A program made the translations under genes and the position numbers. This document shows positions 55,820 to 64,000 of a stretch of DNA of 64,000 nucleotides, one piece after another; positions within the stretch are counted from its first letter, which is position 1; the number at the start of each line of letters is the position of its first letter. Origin of the DNA: an uncultured Rickettsiales bacterium. GTDB lineage: Bacteria > Myxococcota_A > UBA796 > UBA9615 > CAYRNR01. Under the pieces are notes generated by a model. It was not told where the DNA came from. It did no database searches and saw nothing but the letters and a program-made list of their open reading frames with translations. The DNA lies in contig CAZDDH010000002.1 of assembly GCA_964504165.1 (NCBI GenBank), positions 24,327 to 88,326 of the forward strand, written 5' to 3'.

Positions 55820-57445
55820 CTAGCGCCGGTACCAGCCGTTGTCGCCGTGTACTAGCAGCACGCCGACGTGTCCGCCAGCGGGAACCATGATATCCCCGGA
55901 CCAGAGCAGCCCGGCCGCCGAATTCTCCACCTGCAGGCGCCAGCTGCCCGCCGGGATCTCCGCCCGCACGAACGGGGCGTGCCGTTCACCCCAGTCCGGC
56001 GCGTTGCAACGCACGTTCCCCGTACTGTTCTCGACGATCACCGACAGGGCGCCCGCCGCGGCCAGGGCCGGCTCGGCGGGTTCTTCGGCCGGGGCTTCGG
56101 TGGGGAGCTCGGCCAGGATCTCGGTGGGGGTGTCGGCCGGGACCACGACCCGGGCCTCCCGTGGAATCCTGTCGGTCTCGCTCCCGGTAGCAGACACGCT
56201 CGCGGGAGCGGGCTGTTCGACGGGAGCGGGCGTCGGCGTGGCCTCGGGCTCGACGGTCGCTGCGGACGGAGGCGCCCCCTCCACCGGTGCAGCGTCGTCC
56301 GTGGCCCCGCCCGGTGCCTCCCCTCCCCTCGTGACCCCCAGGAACACCAGCCATCCGGCCAGCACCACCGCAACGGGCGCCGCGATCCAGGCCCACCGCC
56401 GCCGGCCGCCCCGGCTCAACTCCGCGGTCTGGCGAGCCGGAGAGGACGCCCGGGTCACCAGCGTCTGCATGTGCCCCCGGGGCCCCGTTGGGTCGGCCAC
56501 GGTTGCGCCAGGCGGGGCACAGGTCACCGCCTCGCCCCCGGCACCGGGCCTCACCAGCGACATCAACTCGGCCAGTCGTTCCTGCCCCGACTCCAGGTCA
56601 TGGGCCCCCGCCGCCAGCTCCTGGCGCATGCTCCGGGCATCGGGATATCGGTCGCGGACATCCGTGGCCAGGGCCCGGCGGAGCACGGGGAACAGGTCTT
56701 CGGGGAGTTGGCCTACCCGCTCCTCCACCGCGGTCAGCGCGCCCCGCCGCGCCGACTCCAGCACCGCCAGCTCGGCGTCCCCCGCCAGGGCCCGCTCCCC
56801 GGTCAGCAGCTCGAACAACAACAGGCCCACGGCGTACAGATCCGAGCGCCCGTCCAGCGCCCCGGCCTTCGCCTGCTCCGGGCTCATGTAGGCGATCTTG
56901 CCCTTGAGCCCTGCGCGGCTCACGTGGTCCGCCGCATCGGTGTGGGCGATGCCGAAATCGGTGAGCTTGACCCGCCCGTCCTCGCTCACCATCACGTTAG
57001 CCGGGCTCACGTCGCGGTGCACGATGCCCAGGGGCCGCCCCCCGTCGTCACGCGCGTCGTGGGCATAGGCCAGGGCCGCCAGCACCTCGCGGCAGATGTG
57101 GGCCGCCAGCCGGGGTGGGATCCGCACCCCTCCCCGCGCGGCAGCACCGATGAGCACGGATAGATCACACCCCTGGATCCGTTCCAGGGCCATGAAGTAG
57201 CCGTCGTCGTCCCGCCCCAGCTCCAGCACCTGCACGATGTTGGGGTGATCCAGCTGGACCGTGGTCTTCGCCTCCCGCACGAGCATCTCGACGAAACCCT
57301 GCTGGCGGGTCAGGTGGCTGTGGATTCGCTTGAGGACCACCGGCTTACGGAACCCCTCCGCCCCCTCGGCGTAGCCGGCCCAGACCACCGCCATACCGCC
57401 GGCGCCCAGCTTCTGAGTCAGGTGATAGCGGCCCGGAGGAGTCAT
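55820..57445 (-). CDS. Membrane Ser/Thr protein kinase (myxobacterial type)
   Basis: LGAGGMAVV, HRDVSPAN, DFGIA, KGK.AYMSPEQ and DGRSDLY; TM helix, Pro/Ala/Glu linker and PEGA-like C-terminus; ATGA-coupled start. Confidence 0.92.
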   Translation of the reverse strand: MTPPGRYHLTQKLGAGGMAVVWAGYAEGAEGFRKPVVLKRIHSHLTRQQGFVEMLVREAKTTVQLDHPNIVQVLELGRDDDGYFMALERIQGCDLSVLIGAAARGGVRIPPRLAAHICREVLAALAYAHDARDDGGRPLGIVHRDVSPANVMVSEDGRVKLTDFGIAHTDAADHVSRAGLKGKIAYMSPEQAKAGALDGRSDLYAVGLLLFELLTGERALAGDAELAVLESARRGALTAVEERVGQLPEDLFPVLRRALATDVRDRYPDARSMRQELAAGAHDLESGQERLAELMSLVRPGAGGEAVTCAPPGATVADPTGPRGHMQTLVTRASSPARQTAELSRGGRRRWAWIAAPVAVVLAGWLVFLGVTRGGEAPGGATDDAAPVEGAPPSAATVEPEATPTPAPVEQPAPASVSATGSETDRIPREARVVVPADTPTEILAELPTEAPAEEPAEPALAAAGALSVIVENSTGNVRCNAPDWGERHAPFVRAEIPAGSWRLQVENSAAGLLWSGDIMVPAGGHVGVLLVHGDNGWYRR

Positions 57446-58548
57446 TCGTCTGCGGGCGCCTCGGACGGCGGTCCCCCGGACGACGGTGGACCCCCACCCT
57501 CCCGCATCTCCTTGGCGAACTGGGCGATCTTGCGGAACGACATCTGGTCGATCCACAGGAAGATCACCCCCAGGGAGCAAAGGATGGCCAGCGTGGAGGT
57601 GTGCAGCACCACGGCGTACGCCGCGGCCGGATCCTTGTCCACGCCGTAGAGGGCCAGCCCGCCGATGATGAAGGCCTCGAAGATGCCGGCGAACAGGGGC
57701 GGCGCCGGCAGCAGGATGCCGATGATCAACACCACCAGCAGCACCAGGCCCGCCATCAAGCCCAGCCCCTCGAAGTTGAACGCCATGCACAAAAACCACA
57801 TGCCCATGGCGTTGACCAGCCATAGCACCACCGTCGTGACCGTCATGTTGATGCCGAAGCGCCAGTCCTTCATGGTCTGGACCCCCTCCAGGAAGGAGCG
57901 GATCAGGCCGGTCAGGCGGAAGGCCAGGCCCTTGTGGAACCGGCCGACGATGGCTTCCGTCCACGAGACAGCGCGCTCCCCCAGCACCAAGAAGGCCAGC
58001 AGGCAGCCGCCAAACGGCACCATCGCGATGGCCACCGCCTTGCGCCCCTCGTCCACGAAGCTGACGGTCCAGTCCCCGATCATGAAGGTGGCCAGCGGGA
58101 TGTCGGCGAACAGCACGGCGAGGGTGAAGCAGGCCCCGAGGCCCATGATGTCGAGCGTGCGCTCCATCACCACGGTGTACATGCCGCTGCCGAACGGGAT
58201 GTCCTTACGCTCCAGCAGCAGGTACGGCCGGGCGAACTCCCCCAGCCGGAACGGGAGCGCCTGGATGGCCAGGAACCCCACCGCGGTGATGCTGAACGCC
58301 TCGCGGAAGGTGATGGGCTTGACCCGGCGGATGATGAGATACCAGCGGAAGGCCCGCACGGTGTGGAGCAGCGTGAACATGCCGCAAGCGCCCAGCCACC
58401 ACCCCACCGACACCCCTCGGATGGCGCCCCAGAAGATATCGAAATCCACGTTCCAGAACAGCACCAGCAGGATCCCCACCCCCAGTGCGATGCTGAGGAT
58501 CAGGCGGATCAACCTCTTCCAGTTTGGGAGGGCGGGGCCGCTGCTCAT
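57442..58548 (-). CDS. Lysylphosphatidylglycerol synthase TM-domain / flippase-like protein (UPF0104)
   Basis: RA.RW, LPFRLGE..R, ER..D and P.P...G.FE; multiple TM helices. Confidence 0.85.
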   Translation of the reverse strand: MSSGPALPNWKRLIRLILSIALGVGILLVLFWNVDFDIFWGAIRGVSVGWWLGACGMFTLLHTVRAFRWYLIIRRVKPITFREAFSITAVGFLAIQALPFRLGEFARPYLLLERKDIPFGSGMYTVVMERTLDIMGLGACFTLAVLFADIPLATFMIGDWTVSFVDEGRKAVAIAMVPFGGCLLAFLVLGERAVSWTEAIVGRFHKGLAFRLTGLIRSFLEGVQTMKDWRFGINMTVTTVVLWLVNAMGMWFLCMAFNFEGLGLMAGLVLLVVLIIGILLPAPPLFAGIFEAFIIGGLALYGVDKDPAAAYAVVLHTSTLAILCSLGVIFLWIDQMSFRKIAQFAKEMREGGGPPSSGGPPSEAPADE

Positions 58549-60419
58549 CGACAGAGGATACCTCCGGTACGCTTTCGCCGCCGGGCGGCGGCCCACACGA
58601 GCCCCACGATTCCCAGCAGTACGGCGCCTCGGGAGGAGCCCGTGTGGGGTGCCAGCTGGCACCCGCCGTTGGATGGCGCGAAGCCCGCGGGATCCGTGCT
58701 CTCCAGGTACTCGTCCAGGTTGGCCACGCCGTCGCCGTCCAGGTCGTCGAGGGAGTCGTCCACGTAGGGATCGAGGAAATGAAACCGCTCCCACAGGTCG
58801 TCCATCCCGTCCCCGTCCTCGTCCCGGGGGAGCTCCAGGTCGGCGGTGGCCTCCTCCCCCACCGCGATGTCGAGGATCGTCGCGTCCTCGATGCGGCGGG
58901 CGTTCCCGCTGTAGGTCGTGACCCAGCCCGGATCCCCGATGCAATACCGGTAGGGCTCGGCCATCAGCTGGTATTCACCGGGGGCCATGCCGCCGAAGCG
59001 GTAGATCCCCTCCTCGTCGGTGGTCTTGAGCTTGGTCGTGCCGTCGGCGACGTTCAGCGCCGTGACGTAGATCCGGCCCAGCAGGCGGCCCGAGTTGGCC
59101 TCGGCGACCGTCCCGGTGAGGACCGCGGCCTCCGGAAGGGCGATGGAGCCCACGTCCGTCTCCTCGCCGGGAGCCATCTCGAACAGATCCCCGTCCAGCA
59201 TGCTGGTGCACAGCTGTTCGCCGCACAGGTAGCCGGTCATGAAGTGATCGTCCTGGGGCTGCAGGTAGAGCCTATGCTCCCCTTCCCCCAGCGCATCCGC
59301 CCGGAAGGCACCGTCCTCGTCGCTGGTGGTGCTCGTGTAGAGGCCGCCCTCCATCGCCATCGCCCGGATCGAGACGCCCTCCAGGGGGACGCCGCCCCCG
59401 GTCACCGTGCCGCTCAGCACCGCCTCCGGGGCCAGGTGGACCTCCACCCCCTCGGTGAGCCCGTCCTCCGGCACCTCCACCGGATCTGCCAGCACCTGGC
59501 TGGCCAGCCCGCTGCTGCTGGCCTGGACCGTGTAGTCCCCCGGAGCCAGCCCCGCCGCCGAGAACGTGCCGTCCCCCGCCACCGTGGTGTTGGCCTGGAT
59601 CCAGGTCTCGACGGCGTGGCGCACGTAGACCGTGCCGCCGGTGACCGGCAGGCCCTCGTCGTCGAACACCGTGCCGTCCAGCTGCCCCCCGACGGGGATG
59701 GCCAGGTCCACGCCAGCGGTGACCTCCTCCCGCAGGGCTTCGACGAATTCCTGGTCGTCGTCGAAGTAGACGCCGGGGTAGTAGATCACCGGGCGCCCGG
59801 TCACCGAGACCTGGATCTCGTAGTTGCCGGGCACGGGGATCATCGACTCGGCATCCTCGATGGCCGAATCCAGCCCCACCACCTGGAAATGGCCGTCGGC
59901 GTCCGTATAGGTAGTGGGGTCGATGTTGCTGTTGTAGTAGTCCTGACCGGACACGTCGATGCGGGCGTCGGCGATGGGATCGCCGGTGGCGGCGTCGGTG
60001 ACCGTGCCCTCGATGGTGCCCCCGTGGGGCAGCCGGAAATCGATGCCGGAGACGGTCGTGTCCCAGCGCATGTCCACGGTCTGCCCCAGGCAGTAGAAGT
60101 AGGTGTCGTTGTAGTACGCACCGATGAAGGGCTGCTCGTCCAGGGGCCAGGCCTTGAGGCGGTAGAAGTCCTCCGGGAGGTCCGGAGCGGTGTAGTAGCC
60201 GTCCGCGTCCGTGTAGAAGATCTCGTACTGGGCCCGTTCGTCGAAGACCACCACGGGGATGCCCTCGATGGGCTCCCCTTCCGGATAGGTCACCACCCGG
60301 CCCTCGACGGTCGTGGGCGGCTCGACCTGCTCGGGGCGCGCCGAGTCATCGTCGTCCCCCCCGCTGTTGCAGCCGGCGAAGAGCGCGAACACCACCAGCA
60401 AATGGAGCAAACGAGTCAT
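58545..60419 (-). CDS. Surface protein with carboxypeptidase-regulatory-like beta-sandwich repeats, Ca-binding DxDxDG motifs and a MYXO-CTERM-like tail
   Basis: Lipobox FAGC; repeats G.V.D...G.P...TD.DG.[YF]...GL..G.Y; DEDGDGMDD and DLDGDG; tail GGC...TM...RRRKR. Confidence 0.8.
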   Translation of the reverse strand: MTRLLHLLVVFALFAGCNSGGDDDDSARPEQVEPPTTVEGRVVTYPEGEPIEGIPVVVFDERAQYEIFYTDADGYYTAPDLPEDFYRLKAWPLDEQPFIGAYYNDTYFYCLGQTVDMRWDTTVSGIDFRLPHGGTIEGTVTDAATGDPIADARIDVSGQDYYNSNIDPTTYTDADGHFQVVGLDSAIEDAESMIPVPGNYEIQVSVTGRPVIYYPGVYFDDDQEFVEALREEVTAGVDLAIPVGGQLDGTVFDDEGLPVTGGTVYVRHAVETWIQANTTVAGDGTFSAAGLAPGDYTVQASSSGLASQVLADPVEVPEDGLTEGVEVHLAPEAVLSGTVTGGGVPLEGVSIRAMAMEGGLYTSTTSDEDGAFRADALGEGEHRLYLQPQDDHFMTGYLCGEQLCTSMLDGDLFEMAPGEETDVGSIALPEAAVLTGTVAEANSGRLLGRIYVTALNVADGTTKLKTTDEEGIYRFGGMAPGEYQLMAEPYRYCIGDPGWVTTYSGNARRIEDATILDIAVGEEATADLELPRDEDGDGMDDLWERFHFLDPYVDDSLDDLDGDGVANLDEYLESTDPAGFAPSNGGCQLAPHTGSSRGAVLLGIVGLVWAAARRRKRTGGILCR

Positions 60420-61654
60420 CCCATGGACCCCTCGACGATGTTGGGGATCGACCGCTCCTCGGGCTCGTCCAGCTCCTCGTCGAGCTGGCGGTCGATGCGC
60501 TCCGCCAGCGCCCGGGAAAAACGGAACGCCGTGGCTACCGCTGCGGGGTTGAGGGCGCGTATCCGATCGCGAGCCGTGTGCACCGGCGTGGCCGGCTGCC
60601 CCCGGCGCAAACCCTTGAGGGTGATGGCCGGGTATCCCCGCCCCGCCGCGACCCCGGCATCGCTGCGCCCGATCAGGGTGAAGGGCCGGATGCGGTGGAA
60701 CGGCTCCTTGCGGGCCAGCAGGGCCGCCAGCCCCGGCAGCAAGGGGTGGTAGCTCTGGGGGCTCGGGCAACGCTCGCCCACGGCAAAGCACAGGGTGCCC
60801 GCGCCCACGTCGTCCACGTTGACCACGAAGGTGTTGTGCTGGGGCAGCTGGCGGCCGAAGGTGGCCAGGAACGCCTCCATCCCCCCGCAGCCGGCCTCCC
60901 GGGATCCGGTCACCAGGAAGCAGACCTCTGCGTTGCGGGTGGGCCGCTTGGTGAAGTACTCGGCCAGGGCCGCGACGACCGCCAGGCCAGAACCGTTGTC
61001 GTTGGCACCCGCCGCCGGGCGGGGGAGCATCCAGTCCAATGAAAGCAAGGTCAACAGCAAGAAAAATGCTATAGGAACCAACAAGAACATATCTAATAGC
61101 TCAAGGTTTACTTCAGGTAATCGGAGCACGATCAGGATCACCTGCAAGCCGGCCATCGACAGCACCAACTTGAGGGGATGCATCTTCCAGCGGCCATCGG
61201 CGCCGCGGAAGGCCCGACTCAGCAGGCCGTTGTGGATCAGGCCACGACGGGCCACGTCGCCGTGGGCCACGAACAGGATTCGCGGCGTATCGCCGTCCTC
61301 GTCTTGCACCTTGCGGGCGATGAGGTTGCTGGAGATGGATTTGGGCAGGAACCAGCGGATCAGGCGCCGGCGGTAGCGCGCTTCACCGATCCAGGAGATC
61401 AGGCCCACCGCCGTGAGGATCAGCCCGGGGATCGGGTGCTTGGCGGCCCACATGCCCCCGGCCAGCAACATCACCGAGTGGGCGAACAGCAGCACGGCCG
61501 GATTGGTATGGCAGACACAGCCCTCGACGCGCGACCGGTACCCCGAACGACGGAACAGCCCGGCCATCGCCTCCTGGCTGGCCCGTTCACCCGGCCCGCC
61601 CGAAAAACGATCTTCGAACTGCTCCAGCTGCTCGATGAACGGCCGTACTTCCAC
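60416..61654 (-). CDS. Membrane-bound M28-family metallopeptidase homolog
   Basis: AHGD, GANDNGSG, TGSREAG, NVDDVG, SD and H...D motifs; four TM helices. Confidence 0.8.
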   Translation of the reverse strand: MEVRPFIEQLEQFEDRFSGGPGERASQEAMAGLFRRSGYRSRVEGCVCHTNPAVLLFAHSVMLLAGGMWAAKHPIPGLILTAVGLISWIGEARYRRRLIRWFLPKSISSNLIARKVQDEDGDTPRILFVAHGDVARRGLIHNGLLSRAFRGADGRWKMHPLKLVLSMAGLQVILIVLRLPEVNLELLDMFLLVPIAFFLLLTLLSLDWMLPRPAAGANDNGSGLAVVAALAEYFTKRPTRNAEVCFLVTGSREAGCGGMEAFLATFGRQLPQHNTFVVNVDDVGAGTLCFAVGERCPSPQSYHPLLPGLAALLARKEPFHRIRPFTLIGRSDAGVAAGRGYPAITLKGLRRGQPATPVHTARDRIRALNPAAVATAFRFSRALAERIDRQLDEELDEPEERSIPNIVEGSMG

Positions 61655-61752: not shown

Positions 61753-63093
61753 ATGTCCGATGCACCCCGCCTGGCCGAATACCGAACCGTCGAAGCCGCG
61801 GGCAAGGTGTTCCTGTTCATCGTCCCGTCCTCGGCCCTGTTCCAGGTGGACCGCGAGCTGGCCGATGCCCTTGGCGCTGGCGGAGATCCCGGATCCGAAA
61901 TCCTGCGCACCAGGGGGAGCGATCTGCGGGAGATGGGCCTTCTCGACCCGGCCCGCCTCGCCGACCCCATCCCACGGCCCGGGCAGCTCACCACGGTGGT
62001 GCTCAACCTCACCCATCGCTGCGAGCTCCGCTGCGCTTACTGCTACGGCCAGGCCAGGCCCCGCCCGGCGATGCAGGACATGCCGGTGGCGACGGCCGTC
62101 GCCGCGGTGGAGTTCCTCTTAGACCGTCTGCCCCCCGCCCGCCCCGCGGGGCTCACCGTATTTTGCGGCGCGCCCCGGGGCAACATGCCCGCCCTGTCCG
62201 CGGCCGCCGAGCGCGCCATCGAACTCGCCACCTCGTCCGGCAGGGAGCTGCGCTTCGCCATCACCACGTCCGCCCTCTCCCTCACCCCCGAAGCGGTCTC
62301 GCTGCTCACCGCGCTGCGGGCCCGGGTGACGGTCAGCATCGATGGCCCGCCGCAGCTCCACGATGGGTGCCGGCCGGCCCGCGACGGGCAGGGCAGCTAC
62401 CAGCGCTCCGCGGCCGGGCTGAGGTTGCTGGGGGCCCGCAACGACGTCACCGGCCGCGCGACGCTCACCCGGCTGGCCCCGGATCCGGTGGCCGTGGTGG
62501 ACCACCTGCTCGGCCTGGGCCTGCGCCGGGTCGGGGTGTCCACCGCCGACGTGGCCGGGGAGCTGGCCATGGACGAACGGGCGTTGCGGCTGCTGGACGA
62601 GGGCATGGAGGCTCTGGCGGACCGATACCTGGAGCAGGCGGCCGGCGGCGGGCACCTACCGCTGAGCAATCTGGACGGCCTGCTGCGCACGATCCACCGG
62701 GGCACCAACCGCACCTACCCGTGCGGTGCCGGGTTACGTCTGGCGGCCTGTGACACGGACGGTTCGCTCTACCTGTGCCACCGCATGCTCGGGCTGGAGG
62801 CGTACCGTACGGGCCACATCCATACCGGATTCGAAGGGCTGGAAGAGCGGGTCAGCGGGCTCTCCTTGGAGCAGCGCCCCGGCTGCACCGGATGCTGGGC
62901 CCGGTACCTGTGCGGCGGCGGCTGTCACCACGCCCATCACGTCGCTGGCTCCCCGACCGCAGAACTGACGGTCTGCCCGTCGATCCGCCGCTGGATGCAG
63001 CGGGCGCTGGAGGTGTACGCCGCCCTGATGGCCGACCACCCGGAATTCATCCAGCGCTTCATCGACCCCGCTCCCCCCTCCCCTGTGGAGTAG
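61753..63093 (+). CDS. qhpD: Radical SAM/SPASM thioether-forming maturase, QhpD/PeaB-like
   Basis: N-terminal LF.VPSSALF, LTTVVLN...CELRCAYC, TVSIDGP, PCGAG...LCHR and C..C..RYLC.GGC.H...C; immediately upstream of a qhpC-like gene. Confidence 0.85.
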   Translation: MSDAPRLAEYRTVEAAGKVFLFIVPSSALFQVDRELADALGAGGDPGSEILRTRGSDLREMGLLDPARLADPIPRPGQLTTVVLNLTHRCELRCAYCYGQARPRPAMQDMPVATAVAAVEFLLDRLPPARPAGLTVFCGAPRGNMPALSAAAERAIELATSSGRELRFAITTSALSLTPEAVSLLTALRARVTVSIDGPPQLHDGCRPARDGQGSYQRSAAGLRLLGARNDVTGRATLTRLAPDPVAVVDHLLGLGLRRVGVSTADVAGELAMDERALRLLDEGMEALADRYLEQAAGGGHLPLSNLDGLLRTIHRGTNRTYPCGAGLRLAACDTDGSLYLCHRMLGLEAYRTGHIHTGFEGLEERVSGLSLEQRPGCTGCWARYLCGGGCHHAHHVAGSPTAELTVCPSIRRWMQRALEVYAALMADHPEFIQRFIDPAPPSPVE

Positions 63094-63129
63094 CCAGGTG
63101 ATACCTTGTGGCTGAACGGAGATTGTCCG

Positions 63130-63423
63130 GTGAGCAACAAGATCAAGCCCATCAATCGCAAGGCCCGGATGCTGGCAACCCGGCGGGACCGGGAGACGGC
63201 CTACGCGTTCAGCGAGTGCTCGTCCGTGTTCGCTCCCGGCTGGGAGACAGGGCAATTCGGCGATCCCGATCCCTGCCCCTGGAAGCACGACCTGGAGCTG
63301 TGCTGGGCCACCTGCTACTGGACCGGCCAGGTCCCCGACATGTTCATGCACCCCGAGTGGCTGGGGGGCTGTGACGACATCAACTCCGACTGGCGCAACC
63401 TGTGCACGATCCCGGACATCTGA
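63130..63423 (+). CDS. qhpC: Quinohemoprotein amine dehydrogenase gamma-subunit-like precursor peptide (CTQ scaffold)
   Basis: Leader KPINRKAR; core C....PGWE...C....DL..C...C.W..QVPD.....P.W......DWR.L matches QhpC; GTG start after GGAGA. Confidence 0.88.
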   Translation: MSNKIKPINRKARMLATRRDRETAYAFSECSSVFAPGWETGQFGDPDPCPWKHDLELCWATCYWTGQVPDMFMHPEWLGGCDDINSDWRNLCTIPDI

Positions 63424-64000
63424 CGCGAGCCCCCGTTGTGGTGACGCTCCTGGCGGCCCTGCTGGCCTTCGCCGGCCGGCCCGCGGTCGCCGAGGCGGAC
63501 CACGCCTGGGTCGCCTCCACCACCATCCGGGTCGTCGATCTGGACAGGGGTGTGATCGTCGGTTCCGTGGACGTGGCAGAGGCGCAGGTGGTCCGCGAGA
63601 TCGTGTTCGATGGCGAGGGGAAGCGGGCGTACGTGGCCTCCATGGGGGGCCTGTTCGAGGTAGACACCGGCACCCTGGAGGTGCTGCGCTGCCTCAGCGA
63701 CCGCCCCACCGCCGCCCTGGCCATCGACGGGCAGGGCCAGCGCCTGGCGGCCCTTCACCTGCCCTACCCCGGCGACGGCCTGGCCCGGCGCGATCTGGGG
63801 CTGCCCGTCAGCACGACGCTCCAGATCTACGAACGGCGGGGAGGCGTGCCGCTATCCAGCGCCGAGATACACGGCCACCCGTTGCGCGTGCAGTATTCCG
63901 AGGACGGGCAGCGCCTGTACGTGATGGACGCCCAGGACGGGACCCTCTCCGTGTTCGATGGTGGAGCCACCGCCGTGGACGCCATCGATGTATTCACCGA
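63402..64000 (+). CDS. Exported YncE/QhpB-like beta-propeller protein (3' truncated)
   Basis: Not in the track; open to the window end. Signal peptide, then IRVVDL, IVFDGEGKRAYVAS and YSEDGQRLYVMD..DGTLSVFD blades. Start is 63402 or 63438. Confidence 0.7.
   Translation, partial: MHDPGHLTRAPVVVTLLAALLAFAGRPAVAEADHAWVASTTIRVVDLDRGVIVGSVDVAEAQVVREIVFDGEGKRAYVASMGGLFEVDTGTLEVLRCLSDRPTAALAIDGQGQRLAALHLPYPGDGLARRDLGLPVSTTLQIYERRGGVPLSSAEIHGHPLRVQYSEDGQRLYVMDAQDGTLSVFDGGATAVDAIDVFT

Follow-up and report, generated by a model that had tools for sequence, protein, structure and literature searches.

QhpC is the small, quinone-bearing gamma subunit of quinohemoprotein amine dehydrogenase (QHNDH), and its solved representatives come from Paracoccus denitrificans (PDB code 1JJU, chain C) and Pseudomonas putida (1JMX, chain G). 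In the canonical system, as described in PMC7876137, a 28-residue leader binds the precursor to QhpD, which installs three thioethers; QhpG, a strictly O2-dependent enzyme, then adds two oxygens to the tryptophan, and cleavage of the leader by QhpE precedes export. The cluster of Novosphingobium sp. RL4 (NZ_CP141945, L039) is canonical in content, with QhpA (545 bits), QhpD (673), QhpC (142) and QhpE (177), and has in addition a QhpB-like gene, a QhpG-like gene and an ABC exporter. Here we compare these systems with a QhpC-like gene in a 64,000-nucleotide stretch of DNA (G000:C2:24327-88326, hereafter the window) from a 9.55-Mb draft genome of 544 contigs, 95.8% complete, deposited under the name of an uncultured Rickettsiales bacterium. 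Positions on locus L003, which extends beyond the window, are converted to window positions by adding 60673.

Taken as a whole, we consider it reasonably probable that this gene represents a distinct QhpC branch, in which the peptide would acquire thioethers from a radical SAM enzyme and a cysteine tryptophylquinone (CTQ), associate with a propeller partner, depend on a pair of U32-type proteins in place of QhpG, and carry a disulfide between C81 and C92. The features of the gene and its nearest neighbours are as follows.

61753..63093, + strand: QhpD-like radical SAM/SPASM peptide maturase, 446 aa (TIGR03906, TIGR04085, cysteine motifs)
63118..63121, + strand: ribosome-binding site GGAG, 8 nt 5' of the GTG, read from the sequence
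63130..63198, + strand: leader peptide, residues 1-23, boundary placed by alignment
63199..63423, + strand: QhpC-like gamma subunit core, residues 24-97 and stop codon (family models, 1jju_C alignment, conservation)
63438..64000, continuing to L003:3769, + strand: N-terminal part of a secreted seven-bladed beta-propeller protein in the QhpB position (AlphaFold2 model, Foldseek)

The QhpC-like gene compared with solved gamma subunits

The reading frame extends from GTG 63130 to the TGA at 63421-63423 on the + strand and encodes a 97-residue peptide, numbered here from the GTG. The frame has a G+C content of 0.91 at third codon positions, against 0.53 and 0.52 in the remaining two frames, and the overlapping open reading frames can therefore be regarded as the usual by-products of high-G+C DNA. 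The peptide exceeds the cut-offs of both Pfam PF08992 (40.7 bits, cut-off 25) and the NCBIfam model NF037958 QH_gamma (59.1 bits, cut-off 50), its matches in the PDB are 1jju_C (E 1.2e-10) and 1jmx_G (E 7.6e-9), and the ratio of nonsynonymous to synonymous substitution (dN/dS) against five relatives is 0.17-0.43. On this evidence it is very likely the precursor of a gamma-type, quinone-bearing subunit of the QhpC family. Membership in the family is not in itself new, since the NCBI pipeline already labels one homologue, P0003, as a QHNDH gamma subunit. As to the leader, F27 of the peptide aligns with the fourth residue of mature 1jju_C, which is the basis for the boundary given above, and N9 and A12 are invariant within the clade.

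The gene lies directly 3' of a QhpD-type radical SAM gene, as for the solved QhpC proteins, with which it also shares the leader and core architecture, the spacing of the 30/39 and 62/70 pairs, the CTQ pair, and the PGWE, QVPD and DW motifs. In the alignment with 1jju_C obtained with HMMER, all four canonical cysteines are matched together with E39, D54, D70 and W64, and the spacings C30-E39 (Cys7-Glu16), C58-W64 (Cys37-Trp43, the CTQ pair) and C62-D70 (Cys41-Asp49) are identical. The second ring is C49-x4-D54, compared with C-x5-D in 1jju_C, and the linker that precedes it is shorter by one residue. Further differences from the solved subunits are the YW (Y63-W64) found in place of WW, a tryptophan (W59) directly after C58, a total of six cysteines where the solved enzymes have four, with C81 aligned to Ala61 and C92 to Gln72, a C-T-I-P-D terminus (C92 to P95-D96), and a cluster without QhpA or QhpG. 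A reading made earlier from the letters of the window (the sequence-only reading) had described a homologue of QhpC, with its radical SAM enzyme encoded alongside, conserved canonical pairs and a contracted second ring. The family models and the QhpD-like character of the upstream gene bear this out, and direct reading and the 1jju_C alignment place every residue and spacing that it listed, including D87, where it had put them.

The four canonical cysteines, their acceptors and the CTQ tryptophan are invariant in 18/18 aligned clade sequences. Three of the four canonical spacings are retained, and the second ring is one residue short in 19/19 sequences of the clade. Elsewhere in the family the spacing of this ring is x5 in 28 representatives, x4 in five, x6 in one and x8 in two. 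At position 63 the whole family has an aromatic residue (Y, F or W). W59 is nearly specific for the clade. The aspartate of the second ring (Asp33) is presumably the catalytic base of QHNDH, in which case the smaller ring may adjust the properties of the active site.

Conservation of C81 and C92

C81 and C92 were followed in three sets of sequences: 17 clade homologues of 49-89% identity from a word-index search, the peptides of 28 related loci obtained by a scan with one genome per species, and a family survey in which a profile search of 1.84 billion representatives returned 49 proteins at E<=0.001. The repetitive sequences P0047 and P0051 were left out of the survey, and the broken-tail sequences P0023, P0026, P0056 and P0066 also out of the pair count; the remaining survey set comprises 42 representatives from outside the clade. 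Three survey proteins, P0053 (557 aa), P0066 (261 aa) and P0038 (320 aa), have a QhpC core fused to longer sequence, and may be either true fusions or frameshifted or miscalled genes.

Within the clade C81 is conserved in 19/19 and C92 in 18/19 sequences, so that the pair at columns 81 and 92 is C/C in 18 and C/R in one, and both cysteines are present in 28/28 related-locus peptides. The conservation among homologues on which the sequence-only reading had staked its case is therefore found. Outside the clade the two columns behave differently. A cysteine occupies the C81 column in 38/42 representatives, but C92 is present in only seven, always together with C81. The combinations at columns 81/92 are C/D in 24, C/C in seven, C/T, C/N and K/D in two each, and C/Q, C/K, C/P, Y/D and A/D in one each. 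Every C92-bearing sequence ends in C-x-[VI]-P-D. The number of cysteines in the family ranges from four to ten, and odd counts are frequent.

An equivalent of C81 is also found in the canonical Novosphingobium cluster, where QhpC is a five-cysteine protein with the same W-x3-C-x5-D-W spacing. Unlike the window's peptide, it has a C-x5-D second ring, an aspartate in the C92 column and a D-L-V-F-P terminus. The five-cysteine form is that of most family representatives. Hence, of the two cysteines that had been singled out as additional, C92 is a mark of the subfamily, but C81 is not. Judged from the alignments, C81 is the family norm, ancestral and common, the two solved four-cysteine enzymes are the exception, and only C92 is new. 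The subfamily is set apart by three marks only: C92 together with the terminal P-D, the x4 second ring, and W59. Since both solved enzymes are four-cysteine forms, the fifth cysteine, although the norm of the family, is not known to have been examined, and the six-cysteine branch offers a natural comparison of cysteine with aspartate at column 92.

In the phylum as a whole, sampled by 401 genomes, strong QhpC-like matches (at least 169 bits) occur in 16 genomes, namely the window's own and 15/15 others sampled from its order; three weak matches of about 57 bits are confined to one other family, and there are none elsewhere in the sample. Many loci of about 70% G+C that carry the cluster are titled 'uncultured Rickettsiales bacterium' and others Myxococcota or Deltaproteobacteria, and the Rickettsiales label looks unreliable.

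Gene content of the cluster

Gene order is conserved across the 28 related loci as radical SAM, QhpC, propeller, X and U32, where X denotes an unnamed TIM-barrel protein and U32 a member of the Peptidase_U32 family. Both are encoded beyond the end of the window, at L003:3847-5575 (window positions 64520-66248). The most unusual feature of the system, a U32 pair in a cluster where neither QhpA nor QhpG was found, thus falls outside the coordinates of the sequence-only reading, which did not mention it. The QhpD-type radical SAM gene is retained in every locus that has upstream sequence. The frequencies of the other genes and the positions of the pair are as follows.

L003:3847-4593, beyond the window end: X, unnamed TIM-barrel protein with four invariant cysteines; in 24/28 related loci
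L003:4595-5575, beyond the window end: Peptidase_U32 protein (PF01136); in 22/28 related loci by tblastn
QhpF-like ABC exporter: in 21/28 related loci
Small QhpE-like S8 protease: in 20/28 related loci

In 22/28 loci the X and U32 genes are flanked by the propeller gene on one side and by those for exporter and protease on the other. The loci in which U32 is missed comprise contig ends (L019, L023), second qhpC copies situated 9 kb from the main cluster in Acidobacteriota (L030, L031), and L016 and L021, where the U32 slot holds a cysteine-rich secreted protein. In the genome of L021, X and U32 are found side by side on another contig, away from qhpC. The cysteine-rich protein is about 240 residues long and is encoded at L016:1524-2273 and L021:9399-10106, in the slot taken by X and U32 in other loci. 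The Acidobacteriota contigs L027-L031, all from metagenome-assembled genomes, contain a pair of qhpC-like genes with about 9 kb between them. Ahead of each is encoded a protein of about 374 residues whose match to the QHNDH alpha subunit is limited to domain IV and in which no CXXCH was seen, and a second propeller gene is placed between the first propeller gene and X.

The canonical genes were sought with Novosphingobium proteins as tblastn queries against 29 loci. Matches were obtained for QhpD in 28/29, for QhpE in 20/29 and for QhpF in 21/29 loci. QhpG gave a match in 0/29 loci, and QhpA gave only weak matches of 38-43 bits in 4/29, all of them Acidobacteriota. In the window's own genome there is no match to QH_alpha (TIGR03908), and the QhpG model NF049967, which gives matches in each of the 14 control genomes as well, scores at best 54.2 bits (cut-off 240). 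That no diheme subunit was found raises the question of where the electrons go.

The 446-residue product of the upstream gene has TIGR03906 quino_hemo_SAM as its best NCBIfam family, a SPASM domain (TIGR04085, 44.6 bits, cut-off 27), and the cysteine motifs CX3CX2C from residue 90 and CX2CX5CX3C from residue 378; it is presumed to be the thioether-forming enzyme. The propeller protein has 334-346 residues, with possible starts at 63402, 63438 and 63441, and its N-terminus resembles a signal peptide. Its AlphaFold2 model shows seven blades at a pLDDT of 91.2, and the top PDB match of the model in Foldseek is 1jju_B, the beta subunit of QHNDH (E 4.8e-13, TM 0.71). By sequence its only PDB match is 1l0q_A (E 2.7e-5). 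The place of the gene and the signal peptide agree with a QhpB, and the protein may be called QhpB-like by position and predicted fold only.

The X and U32 protein pair

The U32 protein matches PF01136 with 122.7 bits (cut-off 22.4), and its best NCBIfam matches are UbiU (79.7 bits) and TrhP (78 bits). Its invariant motif is C183-x6-C190-x13-C204-x42-C247, and that of X is CXnCX17-18CX3C. These motifs are, by comparison of their cysteine patterns, of the UbiU and UbiV kind, respectively: PMC6747719 gives CX6CX16CX38C for UbiU and CXnCX12CX3C for UbiV, each of which binds a [4Fe-4S] cluster in a heterodimer. Each of X and U32 accordingly has four conserved cysteines that, by motif comparison, would be able to hold such a cluster.

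The relationship of X is more distant. None of 20 members gave a Pfam match at E<=0.1, the best PDB profile matches, to de novo TIM barrels, have E values no better than 0.16, and database homologues are all 'hypothetical'. The X profile and the profile of the cluster U32 proteins are nevertheless aligned by hhalign with a probability of 90.8% over 77 columns, and a Foldseek search with the AlphaFold2 model of X (pLDDT 80.8) gives a single match at E<=0.001, to the U32 protein 5d88. The neighbour cluster of X in the Atlas is named 'Peptidase U32' automatically, with a score of 0.95, which we take as a lead only. VIA-align is less decisive, and here counts against a U32 relationship, as it ties 5d88 (Z 12.1, 202 aligned) with CutC (Z 12.2); generic TIM barrels follow at Z ~10.

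When the complex of the window's own X and U32 was predicted, the interface reached an ipSAE of 0.92 in three runs, whereas the best of three controls gave 0.00; the pLDDT of the partner was 87-88, at least 90% of the contacts were common to the runs, and the interface includes both cysteine motifs. The mark used for such predictions is reached by 58/80 solved pairs and 2/110 mismatched pairs, counts that apply here only roughly, since the prediction was made with our own alignments. We know of no solved UbiU-UbiV complex; if one exists, the result could reflect likeness to it. The fold model supports, but does not show, that X and U32 bind each other.

As for UbiU-UbiV, the pair that hydroxylates ubiquinone precursors independently of O2, the X and U32 genes are adjacent, one product has PF01136 and a CX6CXnCXnC motif and the other CXnCXnCX3C, and a heterodimer is predicted, though for X and U32 by modelling only. 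Unlike UbiU, however, the U32 protein falls far below the equivalog cut-off of 440 bits, and X has no Pfam match. The substrate proposed below, a tryptophan in a protein, is also unlike those of UbiU/UbiV, TrhP and RlhA, which act on a prenylphenol or RNA bases.

Because no QhpG is encoded here and a U32 pair is present in the cluster, we propose the pair for the dihydroxylation of the tryptophan. U32 proteins have been proposed to be prephenate-dependent, O2-independent hydroxylases of aromatic rings (PMC10990095). In this proposal an X/U32 heterodimer with two [4Fe-4S] clusters would hydroxylate W64 without O2, which from gene content we regard as a credible guess that falls somewhat short of an even chance. 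If the pair replaces QhpG, it would constitute a testable anaerobic route to a protein-derived quinone, and the peptide would be the first protein substrate of a U32 hydroxylase, one that can be followed by mass spectrometry. In the literature searched there is no paper that links U32 proteins with a quinohemoprotein or a tryptophylquinone.

A sizeable minority chance is left to the reading that X and U32 have nothing to do with the cofactor, being a protease, as the older name 'peptidase U32' implies, or an unrelated hydroxylase pair that is merely syntenic, and that an unlinked enzyme oxidises the tryptophan. Strong X matches (at least 230 bits) are present in 15 of the 16 phylum genomes with strong QhpC-like matches, but a weaker X-like protein is also encoded in 25 sampled genomes from which the QhpC-like gene is absent, and since related genomes are not independent, the co-occurrence of QhpC and X amounts to an association within one order only. 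Also awkward for our proposal is the genome of locus L016 (G089, 93% complete), where a QhpC-like gene is present and neither X nor a cluster-type U32 was found. The same genome encodes four unlinked flavoproteins of the QhpG/LodB/halogenase superfamily, scoring 112-155 bits, below the QhpG cut-off; the two that were scanned score higher to the halogenase CmlS. The position of the pair between propeller and exporter/protease genes in 22/28 loci and the absence of QhpG from 29/29 loci speak for a role in maturation, and a protease function would be superfluous for leader removal, which the S8 protease already covers. Moreover, the known functions of U32 proteins, as described in PMC10990095, are hydroxylations of aromatic rings.

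State of the additional cysteines

For the two cysteines the sequence-only reading had suggested either a fourth thioether, C81-D87, or a C81-C92 disulfide. The C/D, K/D and C/C pattern at columns 81 and 92 gives a weak hint that these positions neighbour each other, and for this reason a C81-C92 disulfide, formed after export, is preferred. It is our best guess from the alignments, held with less than even confidence, and would give a hybrid bracing by thioethers and a disulfide. A comparison can be made with the beta subunit of methylamine dehydrogenase, which bears tryptophan tryptophylquinone and has six disulfides, in contrast to the three thioethers of QhpC (PMC7876137). Like the peptide in its proposed mature form, this subunit is small, carries a quinone and is held together by numerous covalent links; unlike the peptide, the methylamine dehydrogenase subunit has its cofactor made in the periplasm by MauG, and the two are unrelated in sequence. 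With a C81-C92 disulfide, the peptide would combine the bracing strategies of methylamine dehydrogenase and QhpC. Two features of the clade fit poorly with a simple pair: P0017 retains C81 but has arginine at position 92, and most clade members have a seventh cysteine at position 31, which would be left unpaired.

Rather unlikely, in our estimate, is that C81, C92 or both are substrates of the QhpD-like enzyme, giving four or five rings, through a C81-D87 link (i+6, like Cys27-Asp33) and possibly a C92-D96 link (i+4). The C81-x5-D87-W88 spacing is constant through the family, C81 has no partner cysteine in 31/42 other representatives, and C92-bearing sequences all share the terminal motif noted above. 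A conserved free thiol in an exported protein would be unusual. Furthermore, the known thioethers of QhpC all run from a cysteine to a downstream aspartate or glutamate (PMC13692751). D87-W88 is, however, equally invariant in family forms without C81, including four-cysteine forms in which the link is impossible, and the conservation of D87 is therefore no evidence for a C81-D87 thioether; the C+6 spacing had been overstated as a hint of one. Likewise, common descent may be all that joins C92 to the terminal P-D, and no such ring is reported in the literature searched, two key older papers excepted.

About equally unlikely is that the additional cysteines have no link within the chain and serve as free thiols, as metal ligands or as the site of a bond to a second subunit, for example the propeller. 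The quinone would then be surrounded by the canonical arrangement of three thioethers, with a tighter second ring. Such freedom would agree with the spread of cysteine counts from four to ten with odd numbers common, with the loss of C92 in P0017, and with C31 appearing and disappearing inside the clade. On the other side, C81 is near-universal and C92 is present in 46/47 clade and locus sequences, which argues for a constrained role of the pair.

Proposed maturation pathway

By homology with the canonical system, the peptide would be docked through its leader of about 23 residues to the neighbouring QhpD-like radical SAM/SPASM enzyme, which would form the C30-E39, C49-D54 and C62-D70 thioethers in the cytoplasm, the C49-D54 ring being one residue smaller than its canonical counterpart. 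W64 would be dihydroxylated and joined to C58 to yield CTQ, a step for which gene content suggests X and U32 as a heterodimer with two [4Fe-4S] clusters that needs no O2. The mature peptide would then pair with the secreted seven-bladed propeller encoded next door. The full combination, in which CTQ is formed without O2 by the U32 pair, the enzyme is a heme-less one of gamma subunit and propeller, and three thioethers, one of them in the contracted ring with the presumed catalytic aspartate, are joined by a C81-C92 disulfide that replaces the Cys/Asp pair of most other QhpC proteins, is on balance rather less likely than not. Neither the subfamily features nor the cluster architecture is described in the literature searched, supplements and two key older papers aside.

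Several observations weigh against the account. The radical SAM protein scores 254.7 bits with TIGR03906, below the cut-off of 453. For the propeller, there is no TIGR03907 (QhpB) match, and VIA-align places 1jju_B only 40th among the matches to the model (Z 28.1, top Z 30.9). The window's own cluster has neither a QhpE-like nor a QhpF-like gene: the best QhpE (NF049966) score in its genome is 62 bits against a cut-off of 165, nothing in the genome is matched with the S8 protein of L005 as query, and the best ABC match is 32% identical. For comparison, the L005 protease itself has QhpE as its best family, with 121.4 bits, which is also below 165. In addition, the C92-type peptide P0031 adjoins an alpha-like gene with a heme motif, so C92 is not tied to heme-less clusters.

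The locus of P0031 is the sole metagenome contig, of 2.6 kb, found with a two-sequence alignment of the outlying C92-type peptides; a six-sequence alignment of these contained no conserved stretch usable for searching. At L054:3-1754, the seven-cysteine P0031 lies directly 3' of a 5'-truncated open reading frame that matches QH_alpha weakly (65.9 bits) and contains the heme motif CGGCH; a propeller gene follows. The three are not interrupted by a radical SAM gene, and the 2.6-kb contig is uninformative on U32 and QhpG.

The window's own genome has a gap of only 147 bp between U32 and a FadL-like gene (L003:5575-5722), at the point where relatives carry the ABC exporter and the S8 protease. Members of the same family show a stepwise loss, with both genes present in L005 and L006, the S8 protease only in L007 and L008, and neither in the window's genome. 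It is therefore possible that maturation is impaired in this organism or follows another course. That the system is a decaying remnant, with a peptide no longer matured or exported, would fit this stepwise loss and the lack of any QhpE match over the cut-off, but is improbable, as none of the five open frames (radical SAM, qhpC, propeller, X, U32) is disrupted, the dN/dS of qhpC is 0.17-0.43, and unlinked substitutes may have escaped notice in a draft of 544 contigs and 95.8% completeness.

Flanking genes

The genes on either side of the cluster are the following.

60416..61654, - strand: divergent M28-family peptidase (Pfam PF04389, 49.2 bits, cut-off 21.3)
L003:5722-10111, downstream of the cluster: FadL-like porin, trypsin-like protease, TPR/zincin protein and MBL-fold hydrolase

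The M28 peptidase gene is located directly upstream of the radical SAM gene in 19/28 related loci by tblastn. In the window it belongs to a group at 57442-61654 on the - strand, together with genes for an LPG_synthase_TM membrane protein and a 748-residue CarboxypepD_reg-repeat protein, and many related loci keep these three genes in the same order ahead of the radical SAM gene. The downstream genes are likewise syntenic in several relatives. The channel among them is of the FadL/TodX-like, outer-membrane type, and might import a hydrophobic amine substrate.

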